Positions 6,581-49,623 are shown, counted from the first letter of the stretch. The stretch is DNA of 64,000 bases from Methanomassiliicoccales archaeon UBA280 (GCA_002499085.1 DAKD01000036.1:24213-88212); one strand, 5' to 3'. A program made the numbers and translations. The notes: generated from the sequence alone by a model not told the origin.

Positions 6581-6582
6581 TC

Positions 6583-30061: not shown

Positions 30062-30523
30062 TCACTTCCTCTTCTTGTCCTTCTCCTCGGCGAGCCTCTG
30101 AATGTGATCCACCGACTTGCGGTAATTGGCCATCGAGACATTGATGTTCTCCTCGACGAAATGCCAGGCGTCCGAGAGGCTGGAGTACCTCAGCTTGTAC
30201 CCTTTCTTCTTCTTGCCGTCCTCCTCGACCGATGTTTCCTCTATCAGGGCCATGGCCCTGAGGTCGTTGACATACTTGCCCATGGTGGGCTGCGTTGTCT
30301 CCAGCTCATGGGCCAGTTCCTTAATTTGCCAGACCTTGTCCCGCCTCTTCAGGAAGCAGTTCACGAACAGCTTGAAGGGAATGCTCTCCCGGGCGTTCCC
30401 GCCCTTGGTCTTGGGTCCGAAATAGCCGATGTGAGTGAGAAAAATTTCGCATGCCTCCTCCAGGTCTTCAACGCTGGTCAGGGGCGTATGCTTGCGCAGG
30501 GTAATCTCGAAATCCATGTCCAT
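30062..30523 (-). CDS. wHTH-containing putative transcriptional regulator
   Basis: I prefer the start at MDMDFEITL (30523). HTH-like segment: WQIKELAHELETTQPTMGKYVNDLRAMALIEE. Confidence 0.6.
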   Translation of the reverse strand: MDMDFEITLRKHTPLTSVEDLEEACEIFLTHIGYFGPKTKGGNARESIPFKLFVNCFLKRRDKVWQIKELAHELETTQPTMGKYVNDLRAMALIEETSVEEDGKKKKGYKLRYSSLSDAWHFVEENINVSMANYRKSVDHIQRLAEEKDKKRK

Positions 30524-30619
30524 GCCGAACCCTAAGGCTGTTTCCCGATAATAATGCTTGTGCTTTAAACGATTTATTTTTAAAGACGGCACAAGCCCGG
30601 GCGATGAGAAAACAGCATG

Positions 30620-30659
30620 CCCCGCCTGATGGTGACGGTTTTTTGGCTGAAGGGCGGGG
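30620..30659. repeat. CATG-CCCCGCC ... GGCGGGG hairpin (26-nt loop), inverted copy of the 29245-29269 element
   Basis: CATGCCCCGCCTG (30617-30629) is the exact reverse complement of CAGGCGGGGCATG (29257-29269). Confidence 0.5.
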
Positions 30660-30958
30660 TGATGATGCCGGATTTTAAAAATCTGGCTGTTGTGATGCAC
30701 AGCGTGCCTTAATCCCCTAGCCCCGCCTGTGTGAGGGTTGTAGCTATCTGGCATTTTTCAGCATCAACCTGAACGAGACGAATCGCTTGCGATTCGTTGC
30801 GAGGGCAGTGGTTTGGCGCCCCACCCACATCCCCCTGGCGCCCCGATGTATTGGCTCTCGCAAGGAATCGTTTCTCTCAATCTTTGCCCCGCAGCATGTT
30901 GGGGCGTTTCGCCCTGAAAAGGTTCCACCGCCTGGCAAACCCCATCGCCAGCCTGGGC

Positions 30959-33900
30959 TTATTGGGCATTGGCGCGCCTCCTCCTGCGGAACACGATAAC
31001 GGACATGCCGAAGGGGATGAATATGGCGATGAGGGCGGCCGAGAACTCGGGGATGATGACCGTGAGAACCTGTGTCCAGCCCGTGCCGTCGGCGCTCGAG
31101 GATGGACCTTTCTCGGGCGCACCCACAATTACATCGTTGTAGCCGTCGCCGTCCAGGTCTCCTGCCATGTCCACGGACCAACCGAAATGTTCGCCTGCCT
31201 GTGTGCCGTTCTTCACGTAATCGGCATTTGCAGCGCTGATGGCGCCGGCCATGGTGGCGGAGCCGTTGAAGATGTATACGGTTCCGGTCCCGCCGTTGCG
31301 ATAGGGCGCGCCGATGATGATGTCGTCGATGCCATCGTCTCCGGCCACTCCGTAGCCCACGTTGCCTGCGCCGGAGACGGACCAGCCGAATTTATCCCCG
31401 GAGGATTGGCCGGTGAGGGTGACGTAGGGGGGGGTGCAGTAGAGATAATGCAGAGTTATGTTGTACAATATCGGCGTGTCACCAACATGGGTGGTTGACA
31501 TTCTCACCTTGTAGCAGAGGTCCTTGCCGACGGCCTCGGTCGGGAACATGTACCATACACCATATTGTATCGCGGACTGGTTCCAGGTTGTGCCGCCATC
31601 TCTGGAAATGGCAATCCAGCCAACAGTGTTTGCTGAAGTGCTGATGTTCCAAAATGGTTTAATGGATGTGATGAAATGTGGAATTGTTGTTTGTGCAGAT
31701 GTATAATCTCCGGGAGATGATGTTGTATAAATTTTAAGGTCGTCCACATAAGCAAGGGGTTGACCGTTATTTGTTCTGGGCGCTCCGAAATTCCAAGGGA
31801 ATGTTGTAATCTCGATGTTATTTATGCTTGTGACGGCAGTGGTGAAACCTAGACCTGTGCCCGAAGAAACACCGTCGATGTAGAGGTCCATCAGGTCTGT
31901 GTTGCAATCAAAAACAACCCTGAAATGATACCATTGGTCGGGATTATATGTATCGAGCGAGTAAACTGTGGTTCCAATCTGATATGCGAAGCGCTCCTCG
32001 AAGAAGCCGACTTCAATGGCATCAGTCGTCCCGCTCCTCAGGATGACGGCAAATTGCTCTTCCGTTGTTCCCTGGTCTGAACATCTTGCCCAGAACTCGA
32101 AAGCCCCGACGGTGATTGCTGTAGCGAAATTACTAGTTATGATTGCACAACCCGTGTTTGCGGTGGCAGTATCGTCATCGAACATCAGAGACTTTGAGCC
32201 GCTATAAGAAACGGTGCCAGAGACATCCACTACGCGGCCTGTGCCCTCTGTAACTGTGCTCCAAGGAGACCCAGGATTGGTTCCAGCTGTGTAAGATTCG
32301 AAACCGTCATAGAACAATGTGGTCCCTGTCAGGTTGAGCTCACCAGTTGGCGTGGCGAAAATGCCACCGCTGGGATTGTTCGTGGCAAGGCTGCTGCCCA
32401 CCGATGTGAATTCCGTATAGGTATCATTATTGATGTGTGCCACATTGTCATAATCTCCGTCAAGCCAGACATACGCATTCCCGTTATCCGTTCCTGGCGC
32501 ACCGACTATGACGCCGTCGTTGCTGCCATCGACCTTGCCGGCACCGGCAACGGAGAAGCCGAACATAGTTTCAGAAACACCATACCGTATGTTGATAGTG
32601 TCTATGTAAACGGTATCCTGGCCGATTCCATCTGCTATGTTTGAATCGATGACATTGAGATAGAACACACCCGAGAGCGTGATTGGAAGCGGTGCGCTGT
32701 AGGTGGTTGAAGAAGCCGAGTTGATAGCTAACACAGGAGTGTAGGGTCCAGATAGTTCAGTTGAATAGCCTATCAGGAAGTCATCGTTCGATCCGGCGCT
32801 GTGATAGCCCGTTGCATAAAGAGTGAGTTTGTCTGCCCCGCCCGGTATGCTCTGCGTGCGCCAGCGATGCTCAAGGCTGTAGCTTGCAGGGCGTATGGCC
32901 AACTGGAAGTAAGCGGCACCATCAGTTACCGCGGAGGTGACACTGGCAGTTCCCGTCGCCCCCGCTGCCGCCTGAGCCTTCGTCCCCCAGCAGCCCGAGT
33001 TGTAGGTCGTGGCCGCGCCATTCGTCTGCTCTGTCGATTCTGTCCAGGGTGATGCGACAGAGAAGGGTGCGCCGTCGCCGCCGTCAAACGATAGACCGTA
33101 AATGGCCAGGCAGTTGTCCACTGTGGTGGTTATTTGTGGAATGACATGGGGATTCACACCCGTGGCTGTTGATATCGCAAAGTTCTGTGCATTGATTGGC
33201 GAAGTAGTATCCGCGCCCGAGATGCGGATGTACCATCCGAGCCAGTATGCCGCACCGGTCGTAGTGACCGTGACGGATGCACCTTCAAAACCGGTGGCGA
33301 TGCGCCAGTACGCTCCGATATATGCGTCGGGCGTGGCACTGCCGGATTCGCCGATCTTTGTCCAACCGGTGACTGCGTTGAAGTGCGGAGAGACAGTCGT
33401 TGCATAGTCATCTGTGACTATCAGGAGCAGGAGTTCACCCACGGTTATTCCGGCCGGGGCCGTGAGCGCACGGGAGTTGGATGTGGCGGTGTCGCCGTTC
33501 GACGCCTGAAACCCTTCCACGGTTGGCACTCTACTTACATCTAGCACTTCCTGTATGGATTGAGTCGCTCCATCTGGAGTGCCCAGTTCATCGATGTTCG
33601 TGTAGGTGTTGGCAACCGTACCCCAGACCGGGCTGTCCATATCCACAGTATAATCAGTGTAAGTAAATTTCATCTCGCCATATAAAACAGAGAATGGAAT
33701 GCTTCTGAAATACATATGGTCCAGATACAGCGTATCAAGCTGGGTGTGTGTCGAAGTTCTGTCCTTGTCTATGACGCCTATGTAAAGTGTGCCGAGGAAA
33801 TCATTCAGGACGGAATCGGAATATTTCTGGTAGGTATCGTCGTCTGCATTCTTCGTGATTGTGAGCATCAACGTCCAGCCTGTCGAACCGACCGTTCCCG

Positions 33901-36900
33901 TTCCAACCTTCGAGTAATAGATTTCGAAATCGTCTCCCTCAGCATTCGAGGTGCGGAAGGCGTCGATGAAGAATGTGCAATTCGACCTGTTTGGAACATC
34001 AACTAACCATTTATGTTCCAGAGCACTTGATGTTCTCATTCCAAATCGAACATACCATACTTGGTCCGTACCATCAGCAGTTCCAGCACCGTCATTGTTC
34101 ATATCGTAAGCCATTCTATTCGGATGGGATCCAGAAACCCAGGATCCAACGCTGCTTCCTGAACCGAAACCCGACCATTCTAGATCAAATAAAACACTGC
34201 CTACACCATCGTAATTGAAATCTGAATATCCTACATCGGAACCGATATTGAATGTAATCCCCCAATCATTGACTTTTCCAGTTAAAACAACATTGCTTGA
34301 ATCATAAACAAGGACACGGTTTGCAATTAGACCATTATAATTCCCAACCATATTTGTTGTTACTGTTGTTAATGCTCCAACATCACACAACCATATTCTG
34401 AAGTAGGATGTGCCATACGTGCCAGACACAGTAGTAGAGGTCCTGATAGAAATCTCCTCGATGTATCCTGCTGCCAATTCAGACTGAAGGTACAATTGTT
34501 GTTGTTTATAACCTGTATTATCATTTCTGAATGGGTCACTATAAGCCGTACCTTCAGTTCCGATTGCATAGTATGTACCTGTTGTGTAACCTTCTTTTAC
34601 AAACTCATAAGTGTCGCCCTGGGTGTGAGTATTGCTGTAAGTATTGGTTAGCGTCCCCAACACAGGGATGTCAGAATCCGCTGTTTCCTCTGTAGGCGCA
34701 TGATAAATATATGATGCATCCTTCCCCGGTTCTCCCACAATCACTTCAGAACCACCAACACCATCTGTGTTCCCGGCGCTGGAAACCGATGCTCCAAAAT
34801 TTCCGTTCGTGTGTCGGCCTGCCATTATCACATCCGCGCTTCCTGCAGCCGTCGGGATGCTCCCATCACCGTAAAAGATGTACGCCCGCCCTCTGCCGGA
34901 ATCGAACCCTTGGGCACCGATGATTATGTCATCGTTTCCTGCATCGTCGTAATCCCCCGCCCCTGACACGCTCGCCCCGAACCTGTCGCCCGCGGCCTCG
35001 CCCGTGATAGTAACGTCAGTGCTTGCCGTGGCCAGGTCAATGGTCTTCGGAGTTCCGCTGGTCAGCGTTGTTGAATAGAATATGTAAGCTCTGCCTGTGT
35101 CGGAACTGTGCCCCGGCGCCCCGATGATTATGTCCGGGCCTCCGCCGTTAACATCACCGGCATCGCTCACGTCCCATCCCAGCTCATCCCCTGCGGCAGC
35201 CCCGAGAATTGTGACGTCCGCGCTCGCCGGGTCGAGGTAATTTGCGTTGGCAGACGTGAACCCGTCGTATCCGAAGAACACGTATGCGGCGCCTTCCCCG
35301 CCATTTGTTCCAGGGGCTCCGACGATGACGTCGCCGTAACCGTCGGCGTTTATGTCCCCGGCATACGAGACGTTCCATCCGAACTTGTCCCCGGCATTTC
35401 CGCCGTAACCGGATGTGACCTCTGCCATCGTTATCATGTCCTGGTCCGTTAACTCATCGCCCGGGCCGGACCTCGTCGCCGCCAGCTCCGTGGCTATCTG
35501 GTCCTCCTTGGCATCATCCCCGTCCTCGTTCCATGCCTCTATCTCGAACCATGCTGTTGCATTGGGGTCCAGCTGAACCGCTATGTATGATTCCAGCTCC
35601 CTGGAGTCCTTCATGTAGGCGGGAGTGCCGATCTGGCTCCAGGACCATGCGCCCTGGTTAGTTCCGACGAACCTGCTGTGGCCTGATGTCTTAACGGAGC
35701 CGTGCTTTCCCGTGAACTGGACCATCCTGTCCGCGCCCATGCCCCCTATCGAGTATCCCGTGGAAGGGTCCGCGTCCGTGTCCAGGTATATCCTGGCAGT
35801 GTCGTCGCCCGTGACCACCGGCTTTTCGACCCTTCCGATGAAGACATTGGCCATGACCGTGCCGCCCTGCTCCCAGACAAGGTACTCGTCAGAGCCGTAT
35901 GGATAGTCCGCGATGCCGTCGGAGTCGACGTCCCTCTGGCCGGCGGAATTCACCGACTGGGCGTCAGGTACGCCGTCGTTGTTGAAATCAAGTTCGTAAC
36001 CTGGCTGCTCCTGGTCGTCGGGTATCCCGTCCCTGTCCGAGTCCGGGGAAACAGGCTGTGGGTTGGGGTTTGGCGCCCTGGCTGTGGATTCAATGGGCAC
36101 CAGGCTGCCTGACATGAACTCACCGATGGATGAGATGTGAAGGTATGCGCCAGTTCCGTCGCTGACTGCGCCGTAGCACCTGATGTCGGCGCTGCTCTTT
36201 TTCCCTGTGGAAACTTCGTTGATCTGGTCGAAAAGCTGTCTGTCCCTCCAGTCGGAGAAACCGCCGTCGACCACGGGTATCTGGGGCACTGAGCCGATGT
36301 AGCAGAGCTCGTTCTGCCCCACGGCGACCTCGAGCCATGCCATGGCTCCCGAGAGGGCAATGTCCCCCGGCGCCGCGATCCTCAGGCCCAGCGTCCTGGA
36401 TGCCGCCGCCGATGCGGAGATGTCTGCCTGGACTGTGAGGTTGAGGGTTTCGCCGGCTGCCAGGGTTCTGCCGACCGTGAAGGACATTGAAGCCGCGGGC
36501 GGGGCCGAGCTTATCTCCGTGCCGGCCGCGTCCAACAGCCTCACTGCGCTCATTGCCGAGGCGCCCGCTGTCCCTTCCAGTGTGAGCCTGATGCTGTCGA
36601 CCGCCGAGTCGCCGCACTTGCCCTCGAACAGGATTGCGAGCAGGTTCTGGCCCGAGCCTGACACTGTCTCGGGTGCGATAGCGTACTGGCTGATGCGCAT
36701 CGAGCATAGGGAGTTGCTGACTAGGCAATCCGAATAATCCACGTATCCGTCCCAGGACTGCGAATGCACCAGGACCGATATGTCTGTGCCCTGCGCGACC
36801 TGAAGCCTGGACCAGGGAATCTGGGTCTCGAGCCTGCTGCCTGCGGCCTCTGCCCTTCCGGAGCCTGTGCTCTCGAACCCGTTCCAGTCGTCCGAGTCTC

Positions 36901-39424
36901 TCTCGGCCGAGAAGGCATAATGCGTGGTGTGAACGGCATCCCCTTGCCATCCTGCGATCGCAATCATGAAGTCCGCGCCCATGCCCCTGATGGAATAACC
37001 CGTGTCCGCATCCAGGTCTGAATCTATCATGATGTGGAACATGTCCATGATGCCCTCGCTGGCCACGGGTTCGCCCCTGAGAATGTCGCCTTCCACCTCC
37101 ACACAGAATGAGACATATGTTTCAGCGTTCTCCGCGACCCAGGCGCCGACAATGTCGATGCTGTCAGGTATCCCCGAGGGCACGGAGCTTATGCCGGATA
37201 TGTCGTTCCAGTCTGCGAATTCGCCGTCGATGTTGATGGGATACCGGACAGTGTCATTTGAGCCGGGGTACATGACCGGGATTATCAGTAGGAGCGCCAG
37301 AACCAGTGCGCCGTAGAGCACCCATCTGCTGCGCTGAGCCCTCTTCCGAATCACGTTGCGCCTGATGGATATCCCGCCCTCGCCTCCCAGACCGTTTGTG
37401 AGCCCGTTGGTAAGGCCGTTCGTGCGCCCGAGCCCGTTTGTAAGGCCGTTGGTCCTACCCAGGCCGTTCGTGAGGCCATTGGTCCTGCCGAGGCCGTTTG
37501 TAAGTCCGTTGGTTCTTCCGAGGCCATTGGTCCTACCGAGGCCGTTCGTGAGTCCGTTCGTTTTCCCCAGGCCGTTTGTAAGTCCGTTTGTTCTTCCGAG
37601 GCCGTTCGTGCGGCCCAATCCATTGGTGCGGCCCAATCCGTTTGTGCGGCCCAGGCCGTTCGTCATGCCCTTGGATCTTGCCAGGCCGTTGGTGAGGCCT
37701 TTTGCCTTCCCCGGGGGAGGGGCAGGCCTCTCCTTCTTTATGTCCTTCATCGGCTCCGGCCGGGCCAATCTCTCCAGCTCATCCAAATCTGCCATCCCGT
37801 CGGTTTCGAGCTTCCTGATGTCAGATTCCTCGAGAGCGTCGCCCAGGGAAGTTAGCTCGGCCAGGAGCTCGTCCTTGAACTCCGATTCCTTGTCATCGGA
37901 CGTGAATTCCTTGACAGGCGTTTCCTTCAGGCGTTTCCTGTCTATTGCCGATTTGACCTCTCTCGTGAAATCCGCGACGCTGATGCCTGTGCTTATCAGC
38001 AGTTCGAGCCTGGCCCTGTCATCCTCGAGTATCTTGGCCGCCTTCAGCATCCTGCCGCATCTGTCCAGCCTATCGATCTCCTCGGGCGTGAGCTTGGGGG
38101 CTTCCAGGGTTCCCAGCTCTTCAAGGAACTTGTCCTCGTCAGCCTCGCGCTTCCTCTTGCCTGCATCGAGCTCCAGGGTCTCGTCAATGGACCACAGCTC
38201 GTCCTCGAGGGACTTCTCGTCAACACCCAGGTCCGTGATGACGGACCCCAGGGCTTCGTCCTCCAGGTCCGCCGTCTTCTTTGGCAGCTTCCCGGCGAGT
38301 TTCGCGATCTTCGGGCTGGGTGTCTTGTCGACGACCATGGATTCGAGTTCCTTGGCCAAGTCCTCGGATTTCATTGGCTTGACCGGGGCCTCGGCAGCCC
38401 GCCTGTAGCAGTTCGCGGCCTTCTCGTGCTCCCCCATCTTCGTGAACACTTCGGCCTTCTCGGCCCACACGCCCGGGTGGTCCATGTCGAGTTTTGTGAC
38501 CTCATTCAGAGACTTCATTGCCAGGTCCAGGTGGCCGAGTTTTGATTGCGTGGAGCCGAGCGCGAACCAGCTCTCGATGTCCTTCGGGTTGATCCGGACC
38601 CTTTCCTCGTATCTGCCCAACATTTGGTTCAGTTCCTGCTCGGCCTGAACCTCCTCCTCCTCTTTCATTATCATGCCGCATTCGTAGCATACCTTCTCAT
38701 CGGTGCTGAGAATGGTGCCGCAGAGCGGGCACTGTATTTCCTCGAGTTCCTTGGCCGGTGCAGGAACCTCAAGTCTCTCTTGGGCCCTGCTTTCCAGCCT
38801 GTCCTGGAACGTGAGGATTATCTTGATCTTCTGCGCGGATTTCAGGCCGATTCCGTTGACCTGGGCCAGCTCGTCCACGTTGGCCTCTTTGAGGTCCTCG
38901 ATGTTCCTGAACCCTGCATCATAGAGGGCTTTGGCCTTCAGGTCACCGATTCCGGGAACTTCCATGAGGACTGCGATGGCCTTGGCCTTGAGCTGCTGCT
39001 CCGGTTTTGCGAATCCCTCCCTGAGGATGTCTTCGGCAATGTCCTTGAGCGTTATGGGGGATGTGAGCAATTCCAGGTATGGGCTTTTCGTCTCCGAACA
39101 GGCTGCCTTGACAGCCTGAAGGAATTTCGCGGCCGCTTCCTCGTACTTGCCCCTCAGGTTCTGGCTGAGGCCGAGGGCCAGGTACAGCGCCGACCAATTG
39201 GCGCCGAGCGCTTCTGCCCGTGAGAACGATGCCCATGCTTCATCATGGTTGCCCATGGCCAGATGCACCTGCCCGTACTCAAACCAGAGCTGGGCGTTGC
39301 CCGGGTCCCTCTGGAGCAGCTTCCTCAGTCTGGTAAGTTCTGTCTTGCCGCTGCCCTGGTCGTCGGATTCCGACACGCGGCTCCATTTCGCCGCAAAGTC
39401 CTCGGTGAAACGTTTCTCGGCCAT
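30959..39424 (-). CDS. Giant (2821 aa) two-anchor membrane protein: cytosolic TPR-(HhH)2-Zn-ribbon-TPR, TNGL repeats, TM, huge FG-GAP/TSP3/LamG-type ectodomain, PEF-CTERM-like end
   Basis: There is no signal peptide. N-terminal TPRs (NAQLWFEYGQVHLAMGNHDEAWASFSRA...). HhH pair PGIGDLKAKALYDAGF / VNGIGLKSAQKI. Zn ribbon CPLCG...CYECG. Acidic coiled region. An array of (GLGRTN/GLTN) repeats. RRNVIRKRAQRSR followed by the TM helix WVLYGALVLALLLIIPVMY. D-x-D-x-D-G Ca-binding repeats (DSDRDGIPDD, DFNNDGVPD, DVDSDGIAD). At least 6 FG-GAP repeats (GDINADGYGDVIVGAPG...AYVFFG). A ConA/LamG-like module (PLAYVDDLKIY). The C-terminus reads IIPEF-SAALIAIFIPFGMSVIVF-RRRRR. Confidence 0.9.
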   Translation of the reverse strand: MAEKRFTEDFAAKWSRVSESDDQGSGKTELTRLRKLLQRDPGNAQLWFEYGQVHLAMGNHDEAWASFSRAEALGANWSALYLALGLSQNLRGKYEEAAAKFLQAVKAACSETKSPYLELLTSPITLKDIAEDILREGFAKPEQQLKAKAIAVLMEVPGIGDLKAKALYDAGFRNIEDLKEANVDELAQVNGIGLKSAQKIKIILTFQDRLESRAQERLEVPAPAKELEEIQCPLCGTILSTDEKVCYECGMIMKEEEEVQAEQELNQMLGRYEERVRINPKDIESWFALGSTQSKLGHLDLAMKSLNEVTKLDMDHPGVWAEKAEVFTKMGEHEKAANCYRRAAEAPVKPMKSEDLAKELESMVVDKTPSPKIAKLAGKLPKKTADLEDEALGSVITDLGVDEKSLEDELWSIDETLELDAGKRKREADEDKFLEELGTLEAPKLTPEEIDRLDRCGRMLKAAKILEDDRARLELLISTGISVADFTREVKSAIDRKRLKETPVKEFTSDDKESEFKDELLAELTSLGDALEESDIRKLETDGMADLDELERLARPEPMKDIKKERPAPPPGKAKGLTNGLARSKGMTNGLGRTNGLGRTNGLGRTNGLGRTNGLTNGLGKTNGLTNGLGRTNGLGRTNGLTNGLGRTNGLTNGLGRTNGLTNGLGRTNGLTNGLTNGLGGEGGISIRRNVIRKRAQRSRWVLYGALVLALLLIIPVMYPGSNDTVRYPINIDGEFADWNDISGISSVPSGIPDSIDIVGAWVAENAETYVSFCVEVEGDILRGEPVASEGIMDMFHIMIDSDLDADTGYSIRGMGADFMIAIAGWQGDAVHTTHYAFSAERDSDDWNGFESTGSGRAEAAGSRLETQIPWSRLQVAQGTDISVLVHSQSWDGYVDYSDCLVSNSLCSMRISQYAIAPETVSGSGQNLLAILFEGKCGDSAVDSIRLTLEGTAGASAMSAVRLLDAAGTEISSAPPAASMSFTVGRTLAAGETLNLTVQADISASAAASRTLGLRIAAPGDIALSGAMAWLEVAVGQNELCYIGSVPQIPVVDGGFSDWRDRQLFDQINEVSTGKKSSADIRCYGAVSDGTGAYLHISSIGEFMSGSLVPIESTARAPNPNPQPVSPDSDRDGIPDDQEQPGYELDFNNDGVPDAQSVNSAGQRDVDSDGIADYPYGSDEYLVWEQGGTVMANVFIGRVEKPVVTGDDTARIYLDTDADPSTGYSIGGMGADRMVQFTGKHGSVKTSGHSRFVGTNQGAWSWSQIGTPAYMKDSRELESYIAVQLDPNATAWFEIEAWNEDGDDAKEDQIATELAATRSGPGDELTDQDMITMAEVTSGYGGNAGDKFGWNVSYAGDINADGYGDVIVGAPGTNGGEGAAYVFFGYDGFTSANANYLDPASADVTILGAAAGDELGWDVSDAGDVNGGGPDIIIGAPGHSSDTGRAYIFYSTTLTSGTPKTIDLATASTDVTITGEAAGDRFGASVSGAGDYDDAGNDDIIIGAQGFDSGRGRAYIFYGDGSIPTAAGSADVIMAGRHTNGNFGASVSSAGNTDGVGGSEVIVGEPGKDASYIYHAPTEETADSDIPVLGTLTNTYSNTHTQGDTYEFVKEGYTTGTYYAIGTEGTAYSDPFRNDNTGYKQQQLYLQSELAAGYIEEISIRTSTTVSGTYGTSYFRIWLCDVGALTTVTTNMVGNYNGLIANRVLVYDSSNVVLTGKVNDWGITFNIGSDVGYSDFNYDGVGSVLFDLEWSGFGSGSSVGSWVSGSHPNRMAYDMNNDGAGTADGTDQVWYVRFGMRTSSALEHKWLVDVPNRSNCTFFIDAFRTSNAEGDDFEIYYSKVGTGTVGSTGWTLMLTITKNADDDTYQKYSDSVLNDFLGTLYIGVIDKDRTSTHTQLDTLYLDHMYFRSIPFSVLYGEMKFTYTDYTVDMDSPVWGTVANTYTNIDELGTPDGATQSIQEVLDVSRVPTVEGFQASNGDTATSNSRALTAPAGITVGELLLLIVTDDYATTVSPHFNAVTGWTKIGESGSATPDAYIGAYWRIATGFEGASVTVTTTGAAYWLGWYIRISGADTTSPINAQNFAISTATGVNPHVIPQITTTVDNCLAIYGLSFDGGDGAPFSVASPWTESTEQTNGAATTYNSGCWGTKAQAAAGATGTASVTSAVTDGAAYFQLAIRPASYSLEHRWRTQSIPGGADKLTLYATGYHSAGSNDDFLIGYSTELSGPYTPVLAINSASSTTYSAPLPITLSGVFYLNVIDSNIADGIGQDTVYIDTINIRYGVSETMFGFSVAGAGKVDGSNDGVIVGAPGTDNGNAYVWLDGDYDNVAHINNDTYTEFTSVGSSLATNNPSGGIFATPTGELNLTGTTLFYDGFESYTAGTNPGSPWSTVTEGTGRVVDVSGTVSYSGSKSLMFDDDTATANTGCAIITSNFATAITVGAFEFWARCSDQGTTEEQFAVILRSGTTDAIEVGFFEERFAYQIGTTVYSLDTYNPDQWYHFRVVFDCNTDLMDLYIDGVSSGTGLGFTTAVTSINNIEITTFPWNFGAPRTNNGQPLAYVDDLKIYTTSSPGDYTSAQTTIPHFITSIKPFWNISTSANTVGWIAISRDGGTTWNQSAIQYGVWYMFPTEAVGKDLCYKVRMSTTHVGDTPILYNITLHYLYCTPPYVTLTGQSSGDKFGWSVSGAGNVGYGVAGDDGIDDIIIGAPYRNGGTGTVYIFNGSATMAGAISAANADYVKNGTQAGEHFGWSVDMAGDLDGDGYNDVIVGAPEKGPSSSADGTGWTQVLTVIIPEFSAALIAIFIPFGMSVIVFRRRRRANAQ
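37388..37700 (-). repeat. In-frame imperfect tandem repeat encoding about 25 units of G-L-(G-R)-T-N, immediately cytosolic of the TM helix
   Basis: The protein reads GLTNGLARSKGMTNGLGRTNGLGRTNGLGRTNGLGRTNGLTNGLGKTNGLTNGLGRTNGL...GLTNGLTNGLGGEGG. The DNA shows 12/18-nt periodicity with synonymous variation. Confidence 0.9.
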
Positions 39425-39560
39425 GTTCAGCCTTCGCTATAAGATTGTATTAGTTATGAAGAAAGGAACGGGGATATTTTAAGATTCTATACGTAAAACA
39501 ATTACATCTGTTTGAAAATCTGAAGGATATTGAACAATAATTTGTGAAATTGCCCCGCGC

Positions 39561-40262
39561 CTATGCGTCGGGAAGCGGCCGCCGGGGTATTTCCAGTACG
39601 GTCTCCTGGCCGAGAACTGTCAGAACGATCACCGTGTTCCCGCGCTTCATATCCCTTATCTCGGGCTTGAGATGTTCCTCGGCAAGCTTTACCATAAGCC
39701 TTCTGGTGAAACCCTTCGACTTGGCCCTCATCTCCAGTGCGATGTCCCTGAACCTCTCTGCCGGGAAATACCTGGCGTACCGGCCGTCCATCAAACGGAC
39801 CACGAGCTCCGAGTCAGTTAGCTCTTTAAGGCAGGTGCGCAGCCTGCCCTCAGTCGAGTCAAGACCGCCGAGCAGCGCTTTCACGTCTGAGCCCGGACTC
39901 TCGAGAATCGAATCGAAAATGCTCCGGCAGTTCCCCTTCGCAAGGACGGACAGCGCCCGGATGCTGTGTTCCTGAACCATCCCGACAGGGGCGAATACCC
40001 GGGATCTGCCATATTGCAATCTCTCGGTATAGCCGGAACTCACAAGCTGCTCGAGATGCCAGGAAACCGATGACCTGGAAATCCCTGTTCCGGATGCAAT
40101 GGCCCCGATGCCAGAGCACGGATTGAGGCAAAGGTGCTGGAAAATCCTTCTGCGGTTGGCGTTCATGAGGGGGCTTGACGGCCTTGCCCTGGCCCTGTCG
40201 GCATACCTGCCCTGCGGCACTATCTCCACGACGCTCTTCAGCGCCCGCCCTATCTTCGGCAT
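39561..40262 (-). CDS. Double winged-helix (ArsR-like) transcriptional regulator
   Basis: RRRIFQHLCLNPCSGIGAIASGTGISRSSVSWHLEQLVSSGY (ArsR-type wHTH) plus a second wHTH-like segment (SIFDSILESPGSDVKALLGGLDSTEGRLRTCLKELTDSELV). Confidence 0.7.
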   Translation of the reverse strand: MPKIGRALKSVVEIVPQGRYADRARARPSSPLMNANRRRIFQHLCLNPCSGIGAIASGTGISRSSVSWHLEQLVSSGYTERLQYGRSRVFAPVGMVQEHSIRALSVLAKGNCRSIFDSILESPGSDVKALLGGLDSTEGRLRTCLKELTDSELVVRLMDGRYARYFPAERFRDIALEMRAKSKGFTRRLMVKLAEEHLKPEIRDMKRGNTVIVLTVLGQETVLEIPRRPLPDA

Positions 40263-40269
40263 TTGAATC

Positions 40270-41172
40270 CTAACCGTCCATCAGCTCATACTCAAGCAGA
40301 ATCTGCCTGATGATGTAGTCCGGGTCCAGCGTGCCGATGTCCTCCATGGAGAGAAGGCTTATGGTCCAGTATATGCTGTGACTTACTTTCGGCGTGAGCT
40401 TCTTCTTCTTCGAAGCGGGCATCTTTGCCAGGGCCTTCTCCAGCCTGGAGTTGAGGTCCACCACATGGGGGGGCGTCTGGGCCGAGAGTGCGTCGTCCTG
40501 CACTATTATGCCGCTGCCCTTCACGATCCTGTAAGGATGCCAGTAATGGCTGTGCCTGCTGCTCCTGCACTTGATTATCTTCATGTCCCTGTGCTCCGGG
40601 CTCTCGTGGCTCTTGTATCTCAGGTGTATGACATTGTCAGCCAGGTACATCGGGATTATCAGGTCCTGGCCGGAGAGGTCGCCCATGACGCTGTGCTCCT
40701 CCAATGTGCATACGACAGTTCCGATCTTCCTTGTCTCCCTGAGAAGCAGCGAGACCAAATCCCTCTGCTCGTACCTGTGATGGACCGACCAAAGCACGGG
40801 CGTGAGCGGGTCGATTACTATCCTGGCATTGTAGCCCTTCCATTCCTCGACGAAGCCGACGAGTTCCGTCTTGATGAAATCAGTGAACTGCTTCCCGCCC
40901 GCGTCCACGAAAACCATCGCGCCCTCGTCGATATAGTCCTCGATGTTCTCCCAGCCCATCTCCACGACTTCGTTTATTATCTGTTTGGGCTCCTCGTCCA
41001 GTGTGATGAATATTGCATCCTCGCCCTGCTCCAGGCCCCGCTTGAGAAAGTAAGTGGCAAAAGTGGTCTTTCCCGCGCCCGAGGAACCAATCACGGCTGT
41101 TATCGTGTTCTGGTTTATCCCCCCGTCCATGAGCCTGTTCAGCCCGTAAATGCCGCTGCGGATCTTCTTCAT
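40270..41172 (-). CDS. KaiC/RecA-superfamily ATPase with ~70-aa C-terminal extension
   Basis: SGIYGLNRLMDGGI, Walker A IGSSGAGKTT, FITLDEEP, Walker B-like RIVIDPL, and the KCRSSRHS pattern typical of single-domain archaeal KaiC-like proteins. Confidence 0.8.
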   Translation of the reverse strand: MKKIRSGIYGLNRLMDGGINQNTITAVIGSSGAGKTTFATYFLKRGLEQGEDAIFITLDEEPKQIINEVVEMGWENIEDYIDEGAMVFVDAGGKQFTDFIKTELVGFVEEWKGYNARIVIDPLTPVLWSVHHRYEQRDLVSLLLRETRKIGTVVCTLEEHSVMGDLSGQDLIIPMYLADNVIHLRYKSHESPEHRDMKIIKCRSSRHSHYWHPYRIVKGSGIIVQDDALSAQTPPHVVDLNSRLEKALAKMPASKKKKLTPKVSHSIYWTISLLSMEDIGTLDPDYIIRQILLEYELMDG

Positions 41173-41176
41173 GGGC

Positions 41177-41422
41177 TCAGCGCCTCAGCATCTCCAGCTT
41201 CCTGTCCTCTTTGGTGGCCTTCTTGAACTGCCTGTAATGCTCCCGGCAGAGCTGGACGCCCCTGTCCTCGCCAGTGAGGTCCCATTTCATTGCCTCCTTG
41301 ACATTCTTCCTGGCCATGGAGCGCTCGGATTCGTTCCCGCAGCCCGCGACCTGGCACTTCTCCTTCGGTTTTTCGCCCCGGGTTTTTCTCATCGTATCAC
41401 AATATGATATCTGGATAGTCAT
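41177..41422 (-). CDS. Small basic CCCH-type putative zinc-binding protein
   Basis: 81-aa ORF 4 nt upstream of the KaiC-like gene. It has CQVAGC ... LCREH plus a Lys/Arg-rich tail. A TTTATC TATA-like element lies about 28 nt upstream of the ATG. Confidence 0.55.
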   Translation of the reverse strand: MTIQISYCDTMRKTRGEKPKEKCQVAGCGNESERSMARKNVKEAMKWDLTGEDRGVQLCREHYRQFKKATKEDRKLEMLRR

Positions 41423-41478
41423 ATTAAAGTCTAACGTAGGTGGATAAATACACCATTGGCTTTACAGGCACTGAAAAA

Positions 41479-42414
41479 ATGGACATGTACCTCGCAGGCG
41501 CCCTAGCCGCATTGCTGACATCGGCGCTTTGGACAGTGAACGCCGTCCTGTTCACCTCGGCCGGAAGGAAGATCGGTGCAGTGAGCGTGAATGCCTGGCG
41601 GATACTGTTCGCCCTGGCTCTGCTGTGGTGCACGCATTTCCTCATGACGGGCCGCCTGTATCCCGAGGGGAGCGGGGAGCAGTACTTCTGGATAGGGCTG
41701 AGCGGCATTGTGGGCCTGGGAATCGGGGACTTCGGGCTGTTCTCCTCGTTCGTGATACTGGGCACGAGGAGGGCCGTCCTGGTCATGTCGCTGGCCGCGA
41801 TATTCGCCGCCGTTGCGGCATTCTTCCTCTTCGGGGAGATCCTCACATTGGTGGCCCTTGCGGGTGTCATCATCACCCTGACTGGCGTCTGCGTGGTCCT
41901 GCTGGAATCCGAGGACAGGTCCCACGAGAGGAAGCTTACAAAGGAGGAGAAGACCAAGGGCATCGCGCTCGCCCTGGTGGGAGCCGTCGGCCAGGGGCTC
42001 GGCCTGGCCTTCCTGAAGATGGGCATGCTCTCTTACCCCGAGGCCACGGGCATGGCTGATGTCACAACCCTGGCAATAGCCTCGACCCTGATGCGCATGA
42101 TGATGGGCGCCTTCTTCGTCTGGACAGTTATCATGTTCTGGGGCAGGTTCGGGGAGCTGCGCAGGGCCTGGAAGAGCCCGCACAGCATGAAGCTGGTAAT
42201 GGCCGGCGCAGTGATCGGGCCTTTCGTGGGCGTCACCCTCTCCACTTTCGCGGCCTACACAACCGAGGTCGGGGTGGCGCAGACACTCATGTCCCTCATG
42301 CCCGTGTTCATCATCCCGGTCGTATGGTACACCTACAGGCAGAGAACGAGCTGGGTAGGGATTGTCGGGGCCTGCGTGGCTGTGGCCGGAGTGGCGGTGC
42401 TATTCTTGGTCTAA
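41479..42414 (+). CDS. EamA/DMT-family transporter
   Basis: About 10 TM helices in two EamA-like halves. I prefer the ATG at 41479 (MDMYLAGALAALL) over the listed GTG at 41440. Confidence 0.75.
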   Translation: MDMYLAGALAALLTSALWTVNAVLFTSAGRKIGAVSVNAWRILFALALLWCTHFLMTGRLYPEGSGEQYFWIGLSGIVGLGIGDFGLFSSFVILGTRRAVLVMSLAAIFAAVAAFFLFGEILTLVALAGVIITLTGVCVVLLESEDRSHERKLTKEEKTKGIALALVGAVGQGLGLAFLKMGMLSYPEATGMADVTTLAIASTLMRMMMGAFFVWTVIMFWGRFGELRRAWKSPHSMKLVMAGAVIGPFVGVTLSTFAAYTTEVGVAQTLMSLMPVFIIPVVWYTYRQRTSWVGIVGACVAVAGVAVLFLV

Positions 42415-42960: not shown

Positions 42961-43034
42961 GGGCCCGTAGCTTAGTCCGGTGGAGCGTTTGGCTCATAAC
43001 CAATTGGTCGCCGGTTCAAATCCGGTCGGGCCCA
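42961..43034 (+). tRNA. tRNA-Met: tRNA with CAU anticodon (elongator Met, or Ile2 if C34 is modified)
   Basis: A manual cloverleaf fold works. Acceptor GGGCCCG/CGGGCCC, D arm GCTT-AGTCCGGTG-GAGC, anticodon loop CT-CAT-AA, variable loop TGGTC, T arm GCCGG-TTCAAAT-CCGGT, discriminator A. No encoded CCA. G1:C72 argues against an initiator. One T:T mismatch sits at the top of the anticodon stem. Confidence 0.85.
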
Positions 43035-43035
43035 C

Positions 43036-44280: not shown

Positions 44281-45021
44281 ATGAATAATCCTTTGATAGA
44301 TATGGTTGAAACATCTGAAATCACAAAACAGTTCACGGAGTTCTTCTACTCACCTGCCAATGTCTCTAAAAGCAAAATTCTTGTAGTCTCCAAATACACG
44401 GAACGGACCAGAGTTAACATTTGCCTGCTGAAATATTTTCTCGACAACCTGAAACAAAAAGGGATATTCATCACTATCGACAGACCTCACCAATATACGG
44501 CAAGCATCCTTGAACTTCATGGTATTTCGCAGAAAAATCTGGTTTACATTGACGCCATCAGCAGGATCTCGGGGGAAAAGGAGTCGAATGTGTCAAATGT
44601 GCGGTTCATAAATGGACCATACGGAATTAATTTCCTGGATGACATATGCTCGTTTTCCTTCACGACAGGAACAATTAATGCCCAGACACTCAATTTAGAG
44701 GATATGGACTTTGTTCTTATAGACGATATTGCGGCCATCACGAAGTACCAGGAGGAAAGTGGGGTCAAGCTTATGATCGATTCATACATATCCAGCATTG
44801 AAGGGATTAAAAATATTATAGCACCCATAGTTCTGGACGCGAATCAGCACAAATTCTTATATAACTTAATTGCAGCCAGGTGTGACCGTATAGTGCTGAT
44901 CAATCTCTCGAAATCATTGTTCAGGGAGATTCCAGTAGGTCGGTCTTCGAATATGGAGAAGTTGTTGATTGCAGGTTCAAACAAATTCCCAGGTAAAACA
45001 ATCGCACCGAGGGGGATTTAA
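44281..45021 (+). CDS. Hypothetical protein; looks like a KaiC/RecA-fold paralogue with a degenerate P-loop
   Basis: KILVVSKYTERTRVNICLLKYFLDNL sits where a Walker A would be, and FVLIDDIAAI is Walker-B-like. Its stop abuts the ATG of the next (intact KaiC-like) gene. Confidence 0.5.
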   Translation: MNNPLIDMVETSEITKQFTEFFYSPANVSKSKILVVSKYTERTRVNICLLKYFLDNLKQKGIFITIDRPHQYTASILELHGISQKNLVYIDAISRISGEKESNVSNVRFINGPYGINFLDDICSFSFTTGTINAQTLNLEDMDFVLIDDIAAITKYQEESGVKLMIDSYISSIEGIKNIIAPIVLDANQHKFLYNLIAARCDRIVLINLSKSLFREIPVGRSSNMEKLLIAGSNKFPGKTIAPRGI

Positions 45022-45705
45022 ATGGAATCGGGCTTTGAGAGGCTTTGCTCCGGCGTGGACGGCGTGGACCCGTTAATTGAGGGGGGTTATCCCTTTCCCT
45101 CCGTGATACTGGTGGCCGGACCCGCCGGGACCGGAAAGACCACTTTCTCCCAGCAGTTCCTTTTTGCAGGTGCGGATAATGACGAAGTGGGATTGTATAT
45201 CACGACGTTGAGCGAGCCTCCGCAGTGGGTGATGCATTATATGTCCCGTATCAAGCGTCTGAACAAAAGTCATATCGGGAAGAATGTGAAATTCTGTGAC
45301 ATCGGGCAGCTTCTCCGCAAGGCAACACCCCAAGAACTCATCGCCTTCATCGATAACGAAATCGCAAAAACTATGGCGCAGAGAGTGGTCATAGACCCCA
45401 TCACCGTCATCAAGGATTTTCTCGGAGTCCAATACAGGCCATTCATCTTCGACCTTGTGAATCATCTCAAGAATTGGCGGGCGGTCACCATCCTGACAGG
45501 CGAGGCTGAGCCGAATGTGATTTACCCTCACGAGGTAGCCTATGCAGCTGATGGCGTCGTGCTGCTCACTTATGAGGAAATCGATGGGACAAGGAAAAAA
45601 TACATGGAAATACTGAAGATGAGAGGGACCGAGCACAGGACCGGTAAATTGACATTCAACATCACTAGAAACGATGGCTTCACTGTGCGGGCCGGTTCAC
45701 CCTGA
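45022..45705 (+). CDS. KaiC/RAD55-like single-domain ATPase
   Basis: SGVDGVDPLIEGGYP, Walker A VAGPAGTGKTT, YITTLSEPP, Walker B VVIDPI, ILKMRGTEHR. Confidence 0.8.
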   Translation: MESGFERLCSGVDGVDPLIEGGYPFPSVILVAGPAGTGKTTFSQQFLFAGADNDEVGLYITTLSEPPQWVMHYMSRIKRLNKSHIGKNVKFCDIGQLLRKATPQELIAFIDNEIAKTMAQRVVIDPITVIKDFLGVQYRPFIFDLVNHLKNWRAVTILTGEAEPNVIYPHEVAYAADGVVLLTYEEIDGTRKKYMEILKMRGTEHRTGKLTFNITRNDGFTVRAGSP

Positions 45706-46307: not shown

Positions 46308-46790
46308 TCAAGGATGAATCCCAAGCATGCGCGACCTTTTCCCCGAGGGAACCTGGGAGATCAAAAATAGAAGAGCGGTTAATGGCAGCACCAGAATAAG
46401 CTGCATTCTGACCCCTGACGGAGAATCGCCTTCCTCCTGGCGGGTATCGGGGGAATACACTTCTTCGTCGGCGGGGGGGAAATGAACAGCCTCGATCATT
46501 GTCACATTGGTCTCCCTAGACAGAGATTGACAGTAGGTAACATTGTTTACTGCAGTGGCATTGCCTGATTCATTGAAATTCGATCCGCCGGGAACAGAGG
46601 CCAGAAGGTCGTCGAGGGTCAGATTTCCAGTGTTCAGCCCTATAAAAGTGATGCTCGATGAATCACGCGTCACCATGCCTGACTCCGGCGAAGGCAGGCT
46701 GCTTCCGAAGAATGGAAGAATGCCGAGGAGAAGAAATGCTGTGAGAGCTACGTACACCTTCATTTTCATATTGATGAATATGGCCGCCAT
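46308..46790 (-). CDS. Small secreted/anchored hypothetical protein
   Basis: An internal start (MAAIFINMKMKVYVALTAFLLLGILPFFGSS) gives a signal-peptide-like N-terminus. There is also a C-terminal hydrophobic segment (LILVLPLTALLFLI). The exact start is uncertain. Confidence 0.4.
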   Translation of the reverse strand: MAAIFINMKMKVYVALTAFLLLGILPFFGSSLPSPESGMVTRDSSSITFIGLNTGNLTLDDLLASVPGGSNFNESGNATAVNNVTYCQSLSRETNVTMIEAVHFPPADEEVYSPDTRQEEGDSPSGVRMQLILVLPLTALLFLISQVPSGKRSRMLGIHP

Positions 46791-46939
46791 GACATAATAA
46801 ATGGAAGGAGGCAAATATTGGAAATGATAATGATCCTGACTGTCATCGCCCAGGTTGAGGTCGCTGGTCACGCATCGGTCTGGCTGAACTTCAGGCGATT
46901 GGATGTCCGGACACGCGACCATTGATCTCAGAATCCCGG

Positions 46940-47644
46940 TTAGCTCGTCACGAAGACCTTGCCCATCTTCTCGAATCTCGAAGGGAGCAAGGAGAGCATG
47001 AAAACAAATTTGTTGTCCAGCACCCTTACATCCTGGATCCTGACTCCGTCAATCCGCTTGACGTAGCTTGAGAATTTGTTGAACTCATCCACATTGTCGA
47101 ATTCTATCATCACGGCCTCGCTCATTGGACTTTCGGGCGCTCCCTTCATAGGCCCTCCTGGCACCGCCTCCATGGGCATTTCTTCCCTGTAGCTGTTGAT
47201 GAATTCGACGCTCGAAGCTGCATTGCTCAGGCTGGCACGCTTCCGGGGCGGTTCAACATTCTCGAATCCTTCGTCGTTGAGTAACTCCTCGACCTTGGCC
47301 TGAAGGGTGTGCAGAAGGTCCTTTTTCTTGACCAGATAATCCGTTACCCCGAGCCTGAATGCCCTGGCAGCCACGTCCTCGTTTCCTTCGCCGGTTACCA
47401 TTATCAGGGGAGTGTTGAGCCTCAGCCCTTCTGTCTTCTCAAGAAATCGGAGGCCGTCCATGCCGAACGGAAGCTTGTAATCCAGCAAAATAAGGTCGAA
47501 CCTTGTTTCCCTGAGCCTTTTCTCGGCAAGATGCCCGTCCCTAGCCTCTACGATTAGAAGGTCGGGCATTCTCTCTTTCAATGCTATGCTCACCATTTCC
47601 CGGAATGCGGGATTGTCGTCGATTAAAAGTATTTTTTTCTCCAT
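46940..47644 (-). CDS. Response regulator: receiver domain plus uncharacterised ~90-aa C-terminal domain
   Basis: ILLIDDN, phospho-acceptor context LILLDYKLP, MVTGEG, YLVKK. The C-terminal part has no motif I recognise. Confidence 0.8.
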   Translation of the reverse strand: MEKKILLIDDNPAFREMVSIALKERMPDLLIVEARDGHLAEKRLRETRFDLILLDYKLPFGMDGLRFLEKTEGLRLNTPLIMVTGEGNEDVAARAFRLGVTDYLVKKKDLLHTLQAKVEELLNDEGFENVEPPRKRASLSNAASSVEFINSYREEMPMEAVPGGPMKGAPESPMSEAVMIEFDNVDEFNKFSSYVKRIDGVRIQDVRVLDNKFVFMLSLLPSRFEKMGKVFVTS

Positions 47645-48097
47645 TCAATAGCCTCCCGGTAATTTGTTAACTATCAGCCAATACAAGGGTATGCTCTTCA
47701 CGGTCTCAACGAATGACCCGAATGAAACCGGTTTTACGATGTAGCTGTTGGCTCCCATGGAATAGCACTCTTTGATGTCGGAATCCAGCATGGATGAGGT
47801 GAGCATGATCACAGGAATACGCTTCAAATCTGCGTCGCCCTTGATTTCAGCCAAAGTCTGCTTTCCGTCCATTACCGGCATCTTGAGGTCCAAGAGTATC
47901 AGGGTCGGCATCGGCCTGTTTGCCTGGTTCTCCCATTGTCCTCGGCCTTTGAGATAATCGAGGGCCTCGCTCCCGTTCCGCATGGTTATGATGTTGTTCA
48001 CATTGTGCGCCTGCTCCAGTGCGTTGACTGTAAGTTCCGCATGCGCTTCGTTGTCTTCCACTAACATGATTATGCTGTTCTTCAGATTTTCTTTCAT
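47645..48097 (-). CDS. Stand-alone CheY-like response regulator
   Basis: [28 protein letters not shown]. Overlaps the upstream kinase gene by ATGA. Confidence 0.85.
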
Positions 48098-49542: not shown

Positions 49543-49623
49543 TCCCTCCTTTTCTTATCTGATAAAATAGGAATATCAGCATTAACGAAAGAGTGCAATT
49601 CACAAGCAATTGGGGGTCCGGGA

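Follow-up and report, generated by a model that had tools for sequence, protein, structure and literature searches.

Do a KaiC-family ATPase, a DNA-binding regulator and a giant surface protein that are encoded side by side in an archaeal genome form one functional system, and what could this system do? The question is raised by positions 30,959 to 41,422 of a 64,000-nucleotide (nt) stretch of DNA from Methanomassiliicoccales archaeon UBA280 (GCA_002499085.1 DAKD01000036.1:24213-88212), which is called the window below. An earlier sequence-only reading had proposed a candidate undescribed system here, with outside-in signalling or contact-dependent DNA handling as possible roles. Our comparative analysis suggests that the ATPase and a double winged helix-turn-helix (wHTH) protein form a regulatory pair, which is coupled to the cytoplasmic head of a giant transmembrane receptor or adhesin and has its output at the promoter of the receptor gene. 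We put the probability of this reading at roughly 0.55. The open reading frame (ORF) call confirmed that the locus holds four co-directional genes on the minus strand, spaced by 4, 7 and 136 nt:

41177..41392, minus strand: small C2CH zinc protein, 71 amino acids (aa) from Met11 (orthologue lengths, invariant residues)
40270..41172, minus strand: single-domain KaiC-family ATPase, 300 aa (PF06745; profile, AlphaFold2 (AF2) model, invariant motifs)
39561..40262, minus strand: double winged-helix regulator, 233 aa (HTH_24 and a weak second wHTH; after KaiC in 68 of 74 loci)
30959..39424, minus strand: giant bitopic surface protein, 2821 aa (ORF call, Pfam; a design recurring in relatives)

To find out how widely these genes are kept together, we scanned the GTDB species representatives with the KaiC alignment. 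The scan gave 243 relatives; the best 80 loci were kept, and their six-frame ORFs were searched by phmmer. A homologue of the wHTH protein lies directly after KaiC in 68 of the 74 assessable loci, and a large protein that shares homology with the giant in its head and/or in residues 700–1300 follows in 36 of the 54 loci with more than 3 kb of downstream sequence. KaiC identities within this linkage range between 91% and about 47%. The genes are adjacent in about 44 loci from about 38 species, and among these are paralogue groups with different flanking genes and a KaiC identity of only about 50%. The genetic coupling claimed by the sequence-only reading was thus confirmed for KaiC, the wHTH protein and the giant, which co-occur in related genomes across several paralogous groups, and it is reinforced by two fusions of a KaiC domain to a membrane protein of the same kind; it did not hold for the zinc protein, found in 16 of the 74 loci, all of the closest clade. 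The relatives are all annotated as Thermoplasmata, Methanomassiliicoccales or Thermoplasmatota metagenome-assembled genomes (MAGs), and within our survey the module was found only in Thermoplasmata-related MAGs. On metagenome contigs of up to 161 kb, we found the KaiC-like protein in identical form and with unchanged neighbours. The loci fall into three groups:

Group A, KaiC identity at least 64%: zinc protein, KaiC, wHTH, giant protein
Group B (loci L024–L041), KaiC identity 53–64%: KaiC and wHTH without a giant gene; a small wHTH-like ORF or a tRNA gene comes next
Group C, KaiC identity about 50%: KaiC, wHTH, then a protein of 1450–2700 aa

Within group B, the pair is followed in L028–L033 by a 159-aa ORF that has no Pfam match and reads like a wHTH protein, and in L034–L038 directly by a sequence that reads, by eye, like a tRNA gene. 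Such KaiC and wHTH genes without an adjacent giant gene fit an autonomous regulatory pair. In the five group-C proteins analysed with Pfam, the order is an N-terminal HHH_5 domain, 1 to about 12 zinc ribbons, TPR, the ecto module described below, a Lamin-tail domain (LTD) and DUF11 repeats. Copies of groups A and C occur together in UBA147, CSMAG_991, SF.bin11 and CSMAG_2432, and at least two copies of the module are present in these four genomes and in bin33 and bin396. Tandem arrays of the module were found in the complete MAG chromosomes CP070751 and CP070739. In one group-C subgroup (L064, L069, L072, L076, L077, L080–L082), the gene upstream of KaiC looks like PdxS, judging from conserved C-terminal motifs; this synteny would mark the subgroup as an orthologous set distinct from the group of the window.

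Could an ordinary adhesin gene simply stand beside an unrelated KaiC/wHTH pair? The 136-nt gap and the separate promoter elements permit independent transcription, and group B does without a giant gene. Against chance adjacency speaks the linkage itself, which persists over the species and paralogue groups counted above despite their different flanks. In addition, the pairwise divergence of KaiC co-varies with that of the ecto module of the giant (r = 0.88, Mantel p <= 5e-4, 16 loci), a correlation to which the shared species phylogeny contributes. The 47–91% range of identity and the differing flanks speak against the spread of a single recent mobile island. Together with the two domain fusions, these data make the absence of a functional system very improbable.

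The two fusions are the strongest evidence that KaiC-type ATPases act at the cytoplasmic head of these membrane proteins. In locus L042 (CP070751.1), the ORF 13085–18049 encodes a full KaiC domain (residues 11–245, E 4.5e-24), followed by zinc ribbons, xNGh repeats, a transmembrane helix, the ecto module and an LTD. In locus L022, the ORF 4491–8195 encodes a KaiC domain (residues 2–219, E 2.7e-25), then a zinc ribbon, TNGL repeats, a transmembrane helix and the ecto module; the Walker A motif of this KaiC domain is degenerate (GPAGREKD). In both proteins, the KaiC domain occupies the position that is held elsewhere by the helix-hairpin-helix (HhH) domain. The L042 region (CP070751.1, 4354186–4375049) holds at locus coordinates 4924–20862, in this order, an HhH/zinc-ribbon giant, KaiC, wHTH, a further wHTH of 202 aa, a further KaiC of 252 aa, the KaiC-fused giant and another HhH/zinc-ribbon/TPR giant. 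This array shows local amplification and domain shuffling of the module.

Using Pfam, we confirmed the assignment of the 300-aa protein to the KaiC family: PF06745 covers residues 5–226 (E 1.1e-39; 136.6 bits, cut-off 26.6). When 57 KaiC homologues with full-length identities of 58–91% were combined into a profile, this matched KaiC in the PDB (E 2e-42) as well as three single-domain proteins of archaea, PH0284, PH0186 and SSO2452 (1e-18 to 1e-20). The AF2 model (predicted TM-score, pTM, 0.74) superposes on the KaiC CI domain, which Foldseek returned as a match with a TM-score of 0.61–0.70 normalised to the target. The protein ends in a helical extension of about 70 aa, and the last 60 residues are confidently modelled as a helical appendage. 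The Walker A motif GSSGAGKT (G29-x2-G32AGKT37), the D59-E60 pair and the Walker-B-like IVIDPLT (I118-x-I-D121) are invariant in the 57 homologues. Judged by these motifs, the protein is an active-type ATPase under strong constraint. It shares with the cyanobacterial KaiABC clock its best sequence and structure matches, which are to the CI domain, but it has one domain instead of two and no CII phosphosite region, and neither KaiA nor KaiB is encoded among the neighbouring genes inspected; a circadian oscillator is therefore not what we see here. The NCBIfam ArlH model matched weakly (E 3.7e-9, 36.6 bits against a cut-off of 215), the RadA models gave E > 1e-5, and the Pfam GvpD_P-loop model gave no match in the 300-aa protein. 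Two other origins of the locus were considered and rejected. As to a defence system, PADLOC returned only generic wHTH (Csa3-type) and P-loop matches, and none for the giant or the zinc protein; as to a viral or mobile origin, IMG/VR returned only remote RecA-like matches.

The partner of the ATPase had been called a double wHTH protein. Its first wHTH was supported above the cut-off (HTH_24, residues 33–78, 33.1 bits against 21.9), and the second one (residues 114–169) is a weak match (HTH_HVO_0163_N, 22.8 bits against a cut-off of 31; PDB entry 5duk, E 0.014). An NCBIfam model of ArsR/SmtB-type metalloregulators scored 38 bits against a cut-off of 55. The first gene of the locus had been described as an 81-aa CCCH protein and a component of the system. 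The mechanical ORF is indeed 41177–41422 on the minus strand with 81 aa, and the residues C13, C18, C49 and H52 are invariant in the orthologues. These are all about 71 aa long and start at the equivalent of Met11 (window position 41392), and a BRE/TATA-like promoter element (BRE, transcription factor B recognition element) overlaps the first ATG of the ORF. The start is therefore most likely Met11, giving 71 aa, and the restricted distribution given above removes the protein from the general components. We found no significant Pfam or PDB match for its family; only DUF7562 and THAP matched, weakly.

What does the ATPase meet at the membrane? The cytoplasmic head of the giant is composed of the following parts:

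39095..39337, minus strand: N-terminal TPR block, residues 30–110 (TPR_17, TPR_19, TPR_16 and ANAPC3 matches)
38819..38968, minus strand: (HhH)2 domain, residues 153–202 (HHH_5, both G-I-G hairpins intact)
38672..38743, minus strand: zinc ribbon CPLC-x10-CYEC, residues 228–251 (direct reading; Zn_ribbon_3 below the cut-off)
38390..38575, minus strand: second TPR block, residues 284–345 (TPR_8, TPR_2 and TPR_1 matches)
37715..38377, minus strand: charged, net acidic linker, residues 350–570 (59 D/E against 39 K/R; kept in the close orthologues P0001 and P0002)
37388..37693, minus strand: juxtamembrane TNGL or G(R/K)TNGL array, 19 units, residues 578–679 (direct reading)

The TPR and (HhH)2 calls for this head were upheld by Pfam above the cut-off: the TPR matches fall into two blocks (TPR_17 44.3 bits, TPR_8 43.8 bits and others), and HHH_5 scored 52.4 bits against a cut-off of 27 (E 7.7e-14). 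The zinc ribbon, which had also been predicted, was read directly as CPLC-x10-CYEC, a motif conserved in P0001 and P0002; Zn_ribbon_3 gave 23.7 bits for the window protein, below the cut-off of 27, and 37–141 bits for paralogues, which carry 1 to about 12 ribbons well above the cut-off. Many proteins of the searched collection contain HhH, zinc ribbon and TPR side by side as a single uninterrupted unit. The long acidic region and the TNGL array foreseen in the head are also present, and the array DNA consists of diverged repeats with periods of 18, 30, 48 and 78 nt at 80–88% match. Arrays of the form xNG[LMIV] stand directly before the transmembrane helix in every relative inspected, the KaiC-fused ones included. 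Word-indexed homologue searches with the head and the ecto module were swamped by repeat and low-complexity words and found 2 and 1 true relatives, respectively; we used the GTDB locus scan and local phmmer instead. An exhaustive HMMER search with the head against 1.84 billion representative proteins gave 27 proteins below 1e-30. Within the charged linker, residues 450–510 (approximately nt 37895–38075) form a strongly conserved helical stretch, RLDRCGRMLKAAKILEDDRARLELLISTGISVADFTREVKSAIDRKRL, which is nearly identical in P0001 although this protein is only about 60% identical overall. It could be a partner-binding site.

The head raises the alternative that the locus serves membrane-tethered DNA handling, in which DNA bound to the (HhH)2 and zinc ribbons would be the substrate of the KaiC-like ATPase during anchoring, uptake, transfer or segregation at contact sites. 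The (HhH)2 is canonical: in a comparison of 45 relatives, the PGIG and NGIG hairpins and their flanking lysines are conserved in the window clade. The nearest solved structures are Hjm/Hel308 domain 5, the N-terminal extension of haloarchaeal L32e, PolX, UvrC and the N-terminal domain of RadA; Hel308/Hjm, PolX, UvrC and RadA, and likewise ComEA, contribute modules that bind nucleic acid, and KaiC itself belongs to the RecA superfamily. In contrast, in one paralogue subgroup the same comparison showed a second hairpin without its glycine, and in the two fusions the KaiC domain replaces the HhH altogether. A single transmembrane helix gives no conduit for DNA, the conserved neighbourhood holds no nuclease, translocase or pilus genes, and the predicted topology is opposite to that of the DNA receptor ComEA, whose HhH lies outside the membrane. 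Numerous paralogues with variable ectodomains also suit sensors or adhesins better. Thus, the contact-dependent DNA handling considered in the sequence-only reading gained no specific support, and we regard this alternative as quite unlikely. RadA/Rad51 and Hel308/Hjm domain 5 do have the most similar (HhH)2, and the head resembles a "split RadA" in that this domain is encoded beside, or replaced by, a RecA-fold ATPase; the ATPase of the window is of the KaiC type, not the RadA type, and a recombinase function is without support.

We then determined how the giant is placed in the membrane and what it exposes. Its remaining parts are:

37268..37324, minus strand: transmembrane helix 1, residues 701–719, predicted N-in (hydropathy 2.34; 7 K/R before, 1 after)
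35525..37267, minus strand: membrane-proximal conserved ecto module, residues 720–1300 (alignment A2, internal duplication)
34625..35407, minus strand: FG-GAP repeat block, about residues 1340–1600 (FG-GAP and FG-GAP_2 matches; cores at 1365, 1431 and 1499)
31355..34624, minus strand: variable distal ectodomain, residues 1601–2690, mostly unannotated (Pfam)
31085..31354, minus strand: C-terminal FG-GAP repeats, about residues 2691–2780 (best Pfam FG-GAP stretch 2747–2775; cores at 2701 and 2764)
31013..31069, minus strand: C-terminal transmembrane anchor, residues 2786–2804, then RRRRRANAQ (topology reading)

As had been proposed, the protein has a hydrophilic N-terminus and no signal peptide, and its N-terminal head is predicted to lie inside the cell. 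The length of about 640 aa given for this head has to be corrected to about 700 aa, because the transmembrane helix is at residues 701–719. In 38 of the 38 relatives checked, one transmembrane helix lies exactly at the start of the ecto module and the 15 residues before it contain more K/R than the 15 after it, so the positive-inside pattern agrees with an internal head throughout. The second, C-terminal anchor was also recognised: the helix at 2786–2804 precedes RRRRR, and a C-terminal helix with a basic tail occurs in most full-length relatives. These features agree in the prediction that the head lies in the cytoplasm and the body outside the cell, held by a second anchor. The C-terminal tail of the giant holds "PEF", the helix and RRRRR. 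A PEF-/PGF-CTERM archaeosortase signal was rejected: no curated model matched, and only Loki-CTERM came up (E 0.21, 11.9 bits against a cut-off of 19.9).

The ecto module consists of two copies of a domain with the pattern IDGxFxDW...DxDxDxxTGY..GxGAD, an Ig-like domain and Ca-binding loops like those of thrombospondin type 3 (TSP3). The duplication is detected by BLASTP at E 2e-9, and the second copy holds the three loops (DSDRDGIPD, DFNNDGVPD and DVDSDGIAD, residues 1128–1173), which bear out the TSP3-like repeats noted earlier. Alignment A2 of 26 module sequences has 32 invariant columns. When the profile was compared with the PDB and the 26 members with Pfam, only weak TSP_3/Ca-loop matches and one weak Glucodextran_C match appeared. 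An AF2 model built from a 3-sequence alignment reached a mean confidence (pLDDT) of 45 and was unusable for a fold search.

Further from the membrane, at least six FG-GAP repeats had been counted. Pfam supports the FG-GAP assignment (E 2.3e-15, 56.5 bits; FG-GAP_2 E 2.5e-11, 44 bits), and by direct reading we recognise five canonical cores and weaker ones besides; the repeats are split between residues 1340–1600, about 2195 and 2690–2780. No Pfam match was found in residues 1590–2200, and residues 2201–2700 gave one FG-GAP_2 match and a weak Sialidase-like carbohydrate-binding module (E 8.5e-4). The latter is the sole match that could be related to the LamG or jelly-roll modules proposed earlier, which find no significant support in Pfam and were dropped. 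The label "integrin-like" suits the ectodomain of this orthologue group but not that of the paralogues, which carry LTD and DUF11 in place of FG-GAP. Like integrin alpha and other FG-GAP beta-propeller adhesins, the giant has FG-GAP Ca-binding repeats in a membrane-anchored ectodomain and a cytoplasmic part able to bind partners. It differs from them as a type II protein with an N-terminal cytoplasmic head; FG-GAP is not family-wide, and homology is limited to the repeat.

The topology bears on another alternative, in which the KaiC-like ATPase and a wHTH adaptor help to insert, fold, turn over or cluster the giant protein and do not pass information on to transcription, a role that would resemble that of ArlH at the archaellum motor. 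A protein without a signal peptide, whose signal-anchor lies 700 residues from the N-terminus, might need such help. The KaiC-head fusions speak for physical proximity without indicating its purpose, and KaiC-like ArlH, which the NCBIfam model relates weakly to our ATPase, is a structural or regulatory component of the motor. Opposed to this is the near-constant partner, a double wHTH protein of the DNA-binding type, whose presence in 68 of 74 loci points to transcriptional output. KaiC/wHTH pairs also exist without an adjacent giant gene, and operator-like motifs are conserved upstream of the giant genes. We consider a role in biogenesis or quality control unlikely.

Where would a transcriptional output act? 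The regulatory DNA of the locus contains three elements:

41421..41436, minus strand: BRE/TATA-like element, CGTTAG + ACTTTAATAT (= CGTTAG+CTTTAATAT) (alignment of 16 orthologous upstream regions)
39534..39545, no strand: palindrome ACAAATTATTGT (ACAA-N4-TTGT), candidate operator or activator site upstream of the promoter of the giant gene
39474..39490, minus strand: BRE/TATA-like element, ATAGAA..CTTAAAATAT, about 50 nt before the ATG of the giant gene (conserved across orthologues)

The first element lies about 30 nt upstream of Met11 of the zinc protein. The other two are in the 136-nt gap, which is conserved in pattern, though not uniformly: the palindrome comes just after the wHTH stop codon, and ATAGAA-N3-4-TTnATATA, the consensus of the second BRE/TATA-like element across orthologues, about 45 nt further on; one paralogue group has the related CTAGAAAcGGTATATAT. 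The giant gene thus appears to have its own conserved promoter, and the module is therefore not a simple four-gene operon. Apparently there are two transcription units, Zn/KaiC/wHTH and the giant gene. ACAA-N4-TTGT has its only match in the 64-kb window here, with 0.05 expected by chance. Orthologues have it in the corresponding place, some group-C loci show it again (L043, L050, L064, L067, L080 and L082), and other paralogue subgroups have conserved upstream motifs of their own beside a TATA-like box. From this we infer that the promoter of the giant gene is a likely target of the wHTH protein of the module. The palindrome is absent upstream of the Zn/KaiC/wHTH genes, so the motif gives no evidence of autoregulation.

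The comparative data demonstrate a functional module but not how it works; outside-in signalling by the giant receptor would be a reasonable proposal. The KaiC ATPase, presumably a hexamer, would dock on the cytoplasmic head of the giant. A ligand, contact or Ca2+ would alter the state of the ectodomain and thereby the nucleotide or phosphorylation state of KaiC or its availability, and this in turn would set the activity of the wHTH protein. The latter would act at the ACAA-N4-TTGT site upstream of the promoter of the giant gene, and possibly elsewhere. In the window clade, the KaiC/wHTH pair would be co-transcribed with the small C2CH zinc protein. A more far-reaching version, which we hold to be possible but rather doubtful, is a new class of transmembrane receptor: a doubly anchored giant that recruits a dedicated KaiC hexamer through its (HhH)2/zinc ribbon/TPR head, so that contact or Ca2+ acts through ATPase activity or phosphorylation on wHTH-dependent transcription, or KaiC sets the adhesion of the ectodomain. 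Such a receptor would be integrin-like and bidirectional, and would have multiplied in Thermoplasmata.

Several facts weigh against the KaiC/wHTH pair acting at the receptor head and the receptor promoter. About one third of the assessable loci have no adjacent giant gene, so the coupling between KaiC and the giant is frequent but not obligatory. The intact HhH hairpins of the window clade would also fit DNA binding. The conserved ecto module has no family match in Pfam or the PDB, and its model has the low pLDDT already given. Finally, the palindrome is short, and it is only provisionally assigned to this wHTH protein.

How does the module compare with known systems? KaiC-like ATPases have been proposed as hubs of archaeal signal transduction with varied partners (Makarova, Galperin & Koonin 2017, as reported in PMC5847659 and PMC4858521). 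Common to these hubs and our locus are a single-domain KaiC ATPase beside a predicted transcription regulator and a membrane protein, and fusions of KaiC to varied input or output modules; peculiar to our locus are the double wHTH protein and the giant bitopic protein with its HhH/zinc-ribbon/TPR/xNGh head and duplicated Ca-binding ecto module. In agreement with the earlier view that the architecture is undescribed, literature searches found no description of the receptor family, the ecto module, the xNGh repeats or the whole module, although Makarova et al. (2017) may already mention it.

Two archaeal systems share part of this logic. In the gas vesicle system of haloarchaea, the KaiC-like ATPase GvpD controls the activator GvpE, so that a KaiC/RecA-like P-loop protein and a transcription factor together determine how neighbouring structural genes are expressed. 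The activator GvpE is bZIP-like, where our locus has a double wHTH protein, and GvpD-GvpE lacks a membrane receptor. ArlH (FlaH) is likewise a single-domain KaiC-like ATPase; it docks on the archaellum motor, a machine associated with the membrane, under the control of its nucleotide or phosphorylation state. The window KaiC matches the ArlH model weakly, and no ArlI or ArlJ genes are nearby. In bacteria, the one-component systems ToxR/CadC and the transmembrane anti-sigma/ECF systems likewise have a cytoplasmic N-terminal module that binds nucleic acid or a regulator, a single transmembrane helix, an extracytoplasmic sensor and a co-encoded transcriptional output. The domains are unrelated: our locus has an ATPase in between and no sigma factor, the giant has no wHTH of the OmpR type, and its ectodomain is longer than 2000 aa and has a second anchor.

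To our knowledge, archaeal signalling beyond two-component systems is poorly understood, and few pathways from receptor to output are defined. The module offers a complete and testable candidate pathway that runs from a defined receptor family through an ATPase and a DNA-binding protein, both dedicated to it, to a candidate operator; the fusions found in nature suggest that ATPase and receptor are in contact. The analysis also defines three conserved elements that were unannotated: the duplicated IDGxFxDW/Ca-binding ecto module, the juxtamembrane xNGh array and the C2CH mini-protein. Among Methanomassiliicoccales-related Thermoplasmata, many of the "giant adhesin-like" genes probably encode regulated receptors and not passive surface coats.

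The window contains other genes that touch on these subjects. Downstream of the giant gene, a 230-aa ORF (30062–30754, minus strand) has an implausible His/Pro-rich N-terminus and a C-terminal part of about 150 aa with an HTH-like segment, IKELAHELETTQPTMGKYVNDL. Only L006, the closest genome, shares this ORF, which is therefore not part of the module. On the other side, the 200-aa ORF 41424–42026 (minus strand) was rejected as spurious, since it is an antisense shadow of a divergent EamA transporter gene (41440–42414, plus strand). Sequence reading places the EamA start probably at an ATG near 41478, and the synteny of this gene is seen only among close orthologues. A second KaiC-like ATPase of 227 aa is encoded at 45022–45705 on the plus strand (PF06745, E 3.6e-41; weak GvpD_P-loop and DUF7125 matches). 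It is abutted by the gene of a 246-aa protein without a Pfam match, which begins at 44281 on the plus strand and whose stop codon ends at 45021; the two (44281–45705) may be another pair of a KaiC protein and its partner. A two-component cluster (46308–52504, minus strand) separates the second KaiC gene from the remainder of the window; in it, Pfam recognises a PAS-rich 564-aa protein, a CHASE4 protein, a HisKA/HATPase kinase and two receiver proteins.

Surface proteins are also encoded at 8663–21473 on the plus strand, in an island of low GC content (34–43% against about 55% in the flanks). Its genes encode a 2449-aa protein with Big_5 domains and a C-terminal clostripain-type Peptidase_C11, a 368-aa protein without a Pfam match and a 1429-aa NosD/beta-helix/PKD protein. 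This island was probably acquired horizontally. Two tRNA genes were found in the window, tRNA-Met (CAT) at 42961–43035 on the plus strand and tRNA-Ser (CGA) at 58158–58234 on the minus strand.

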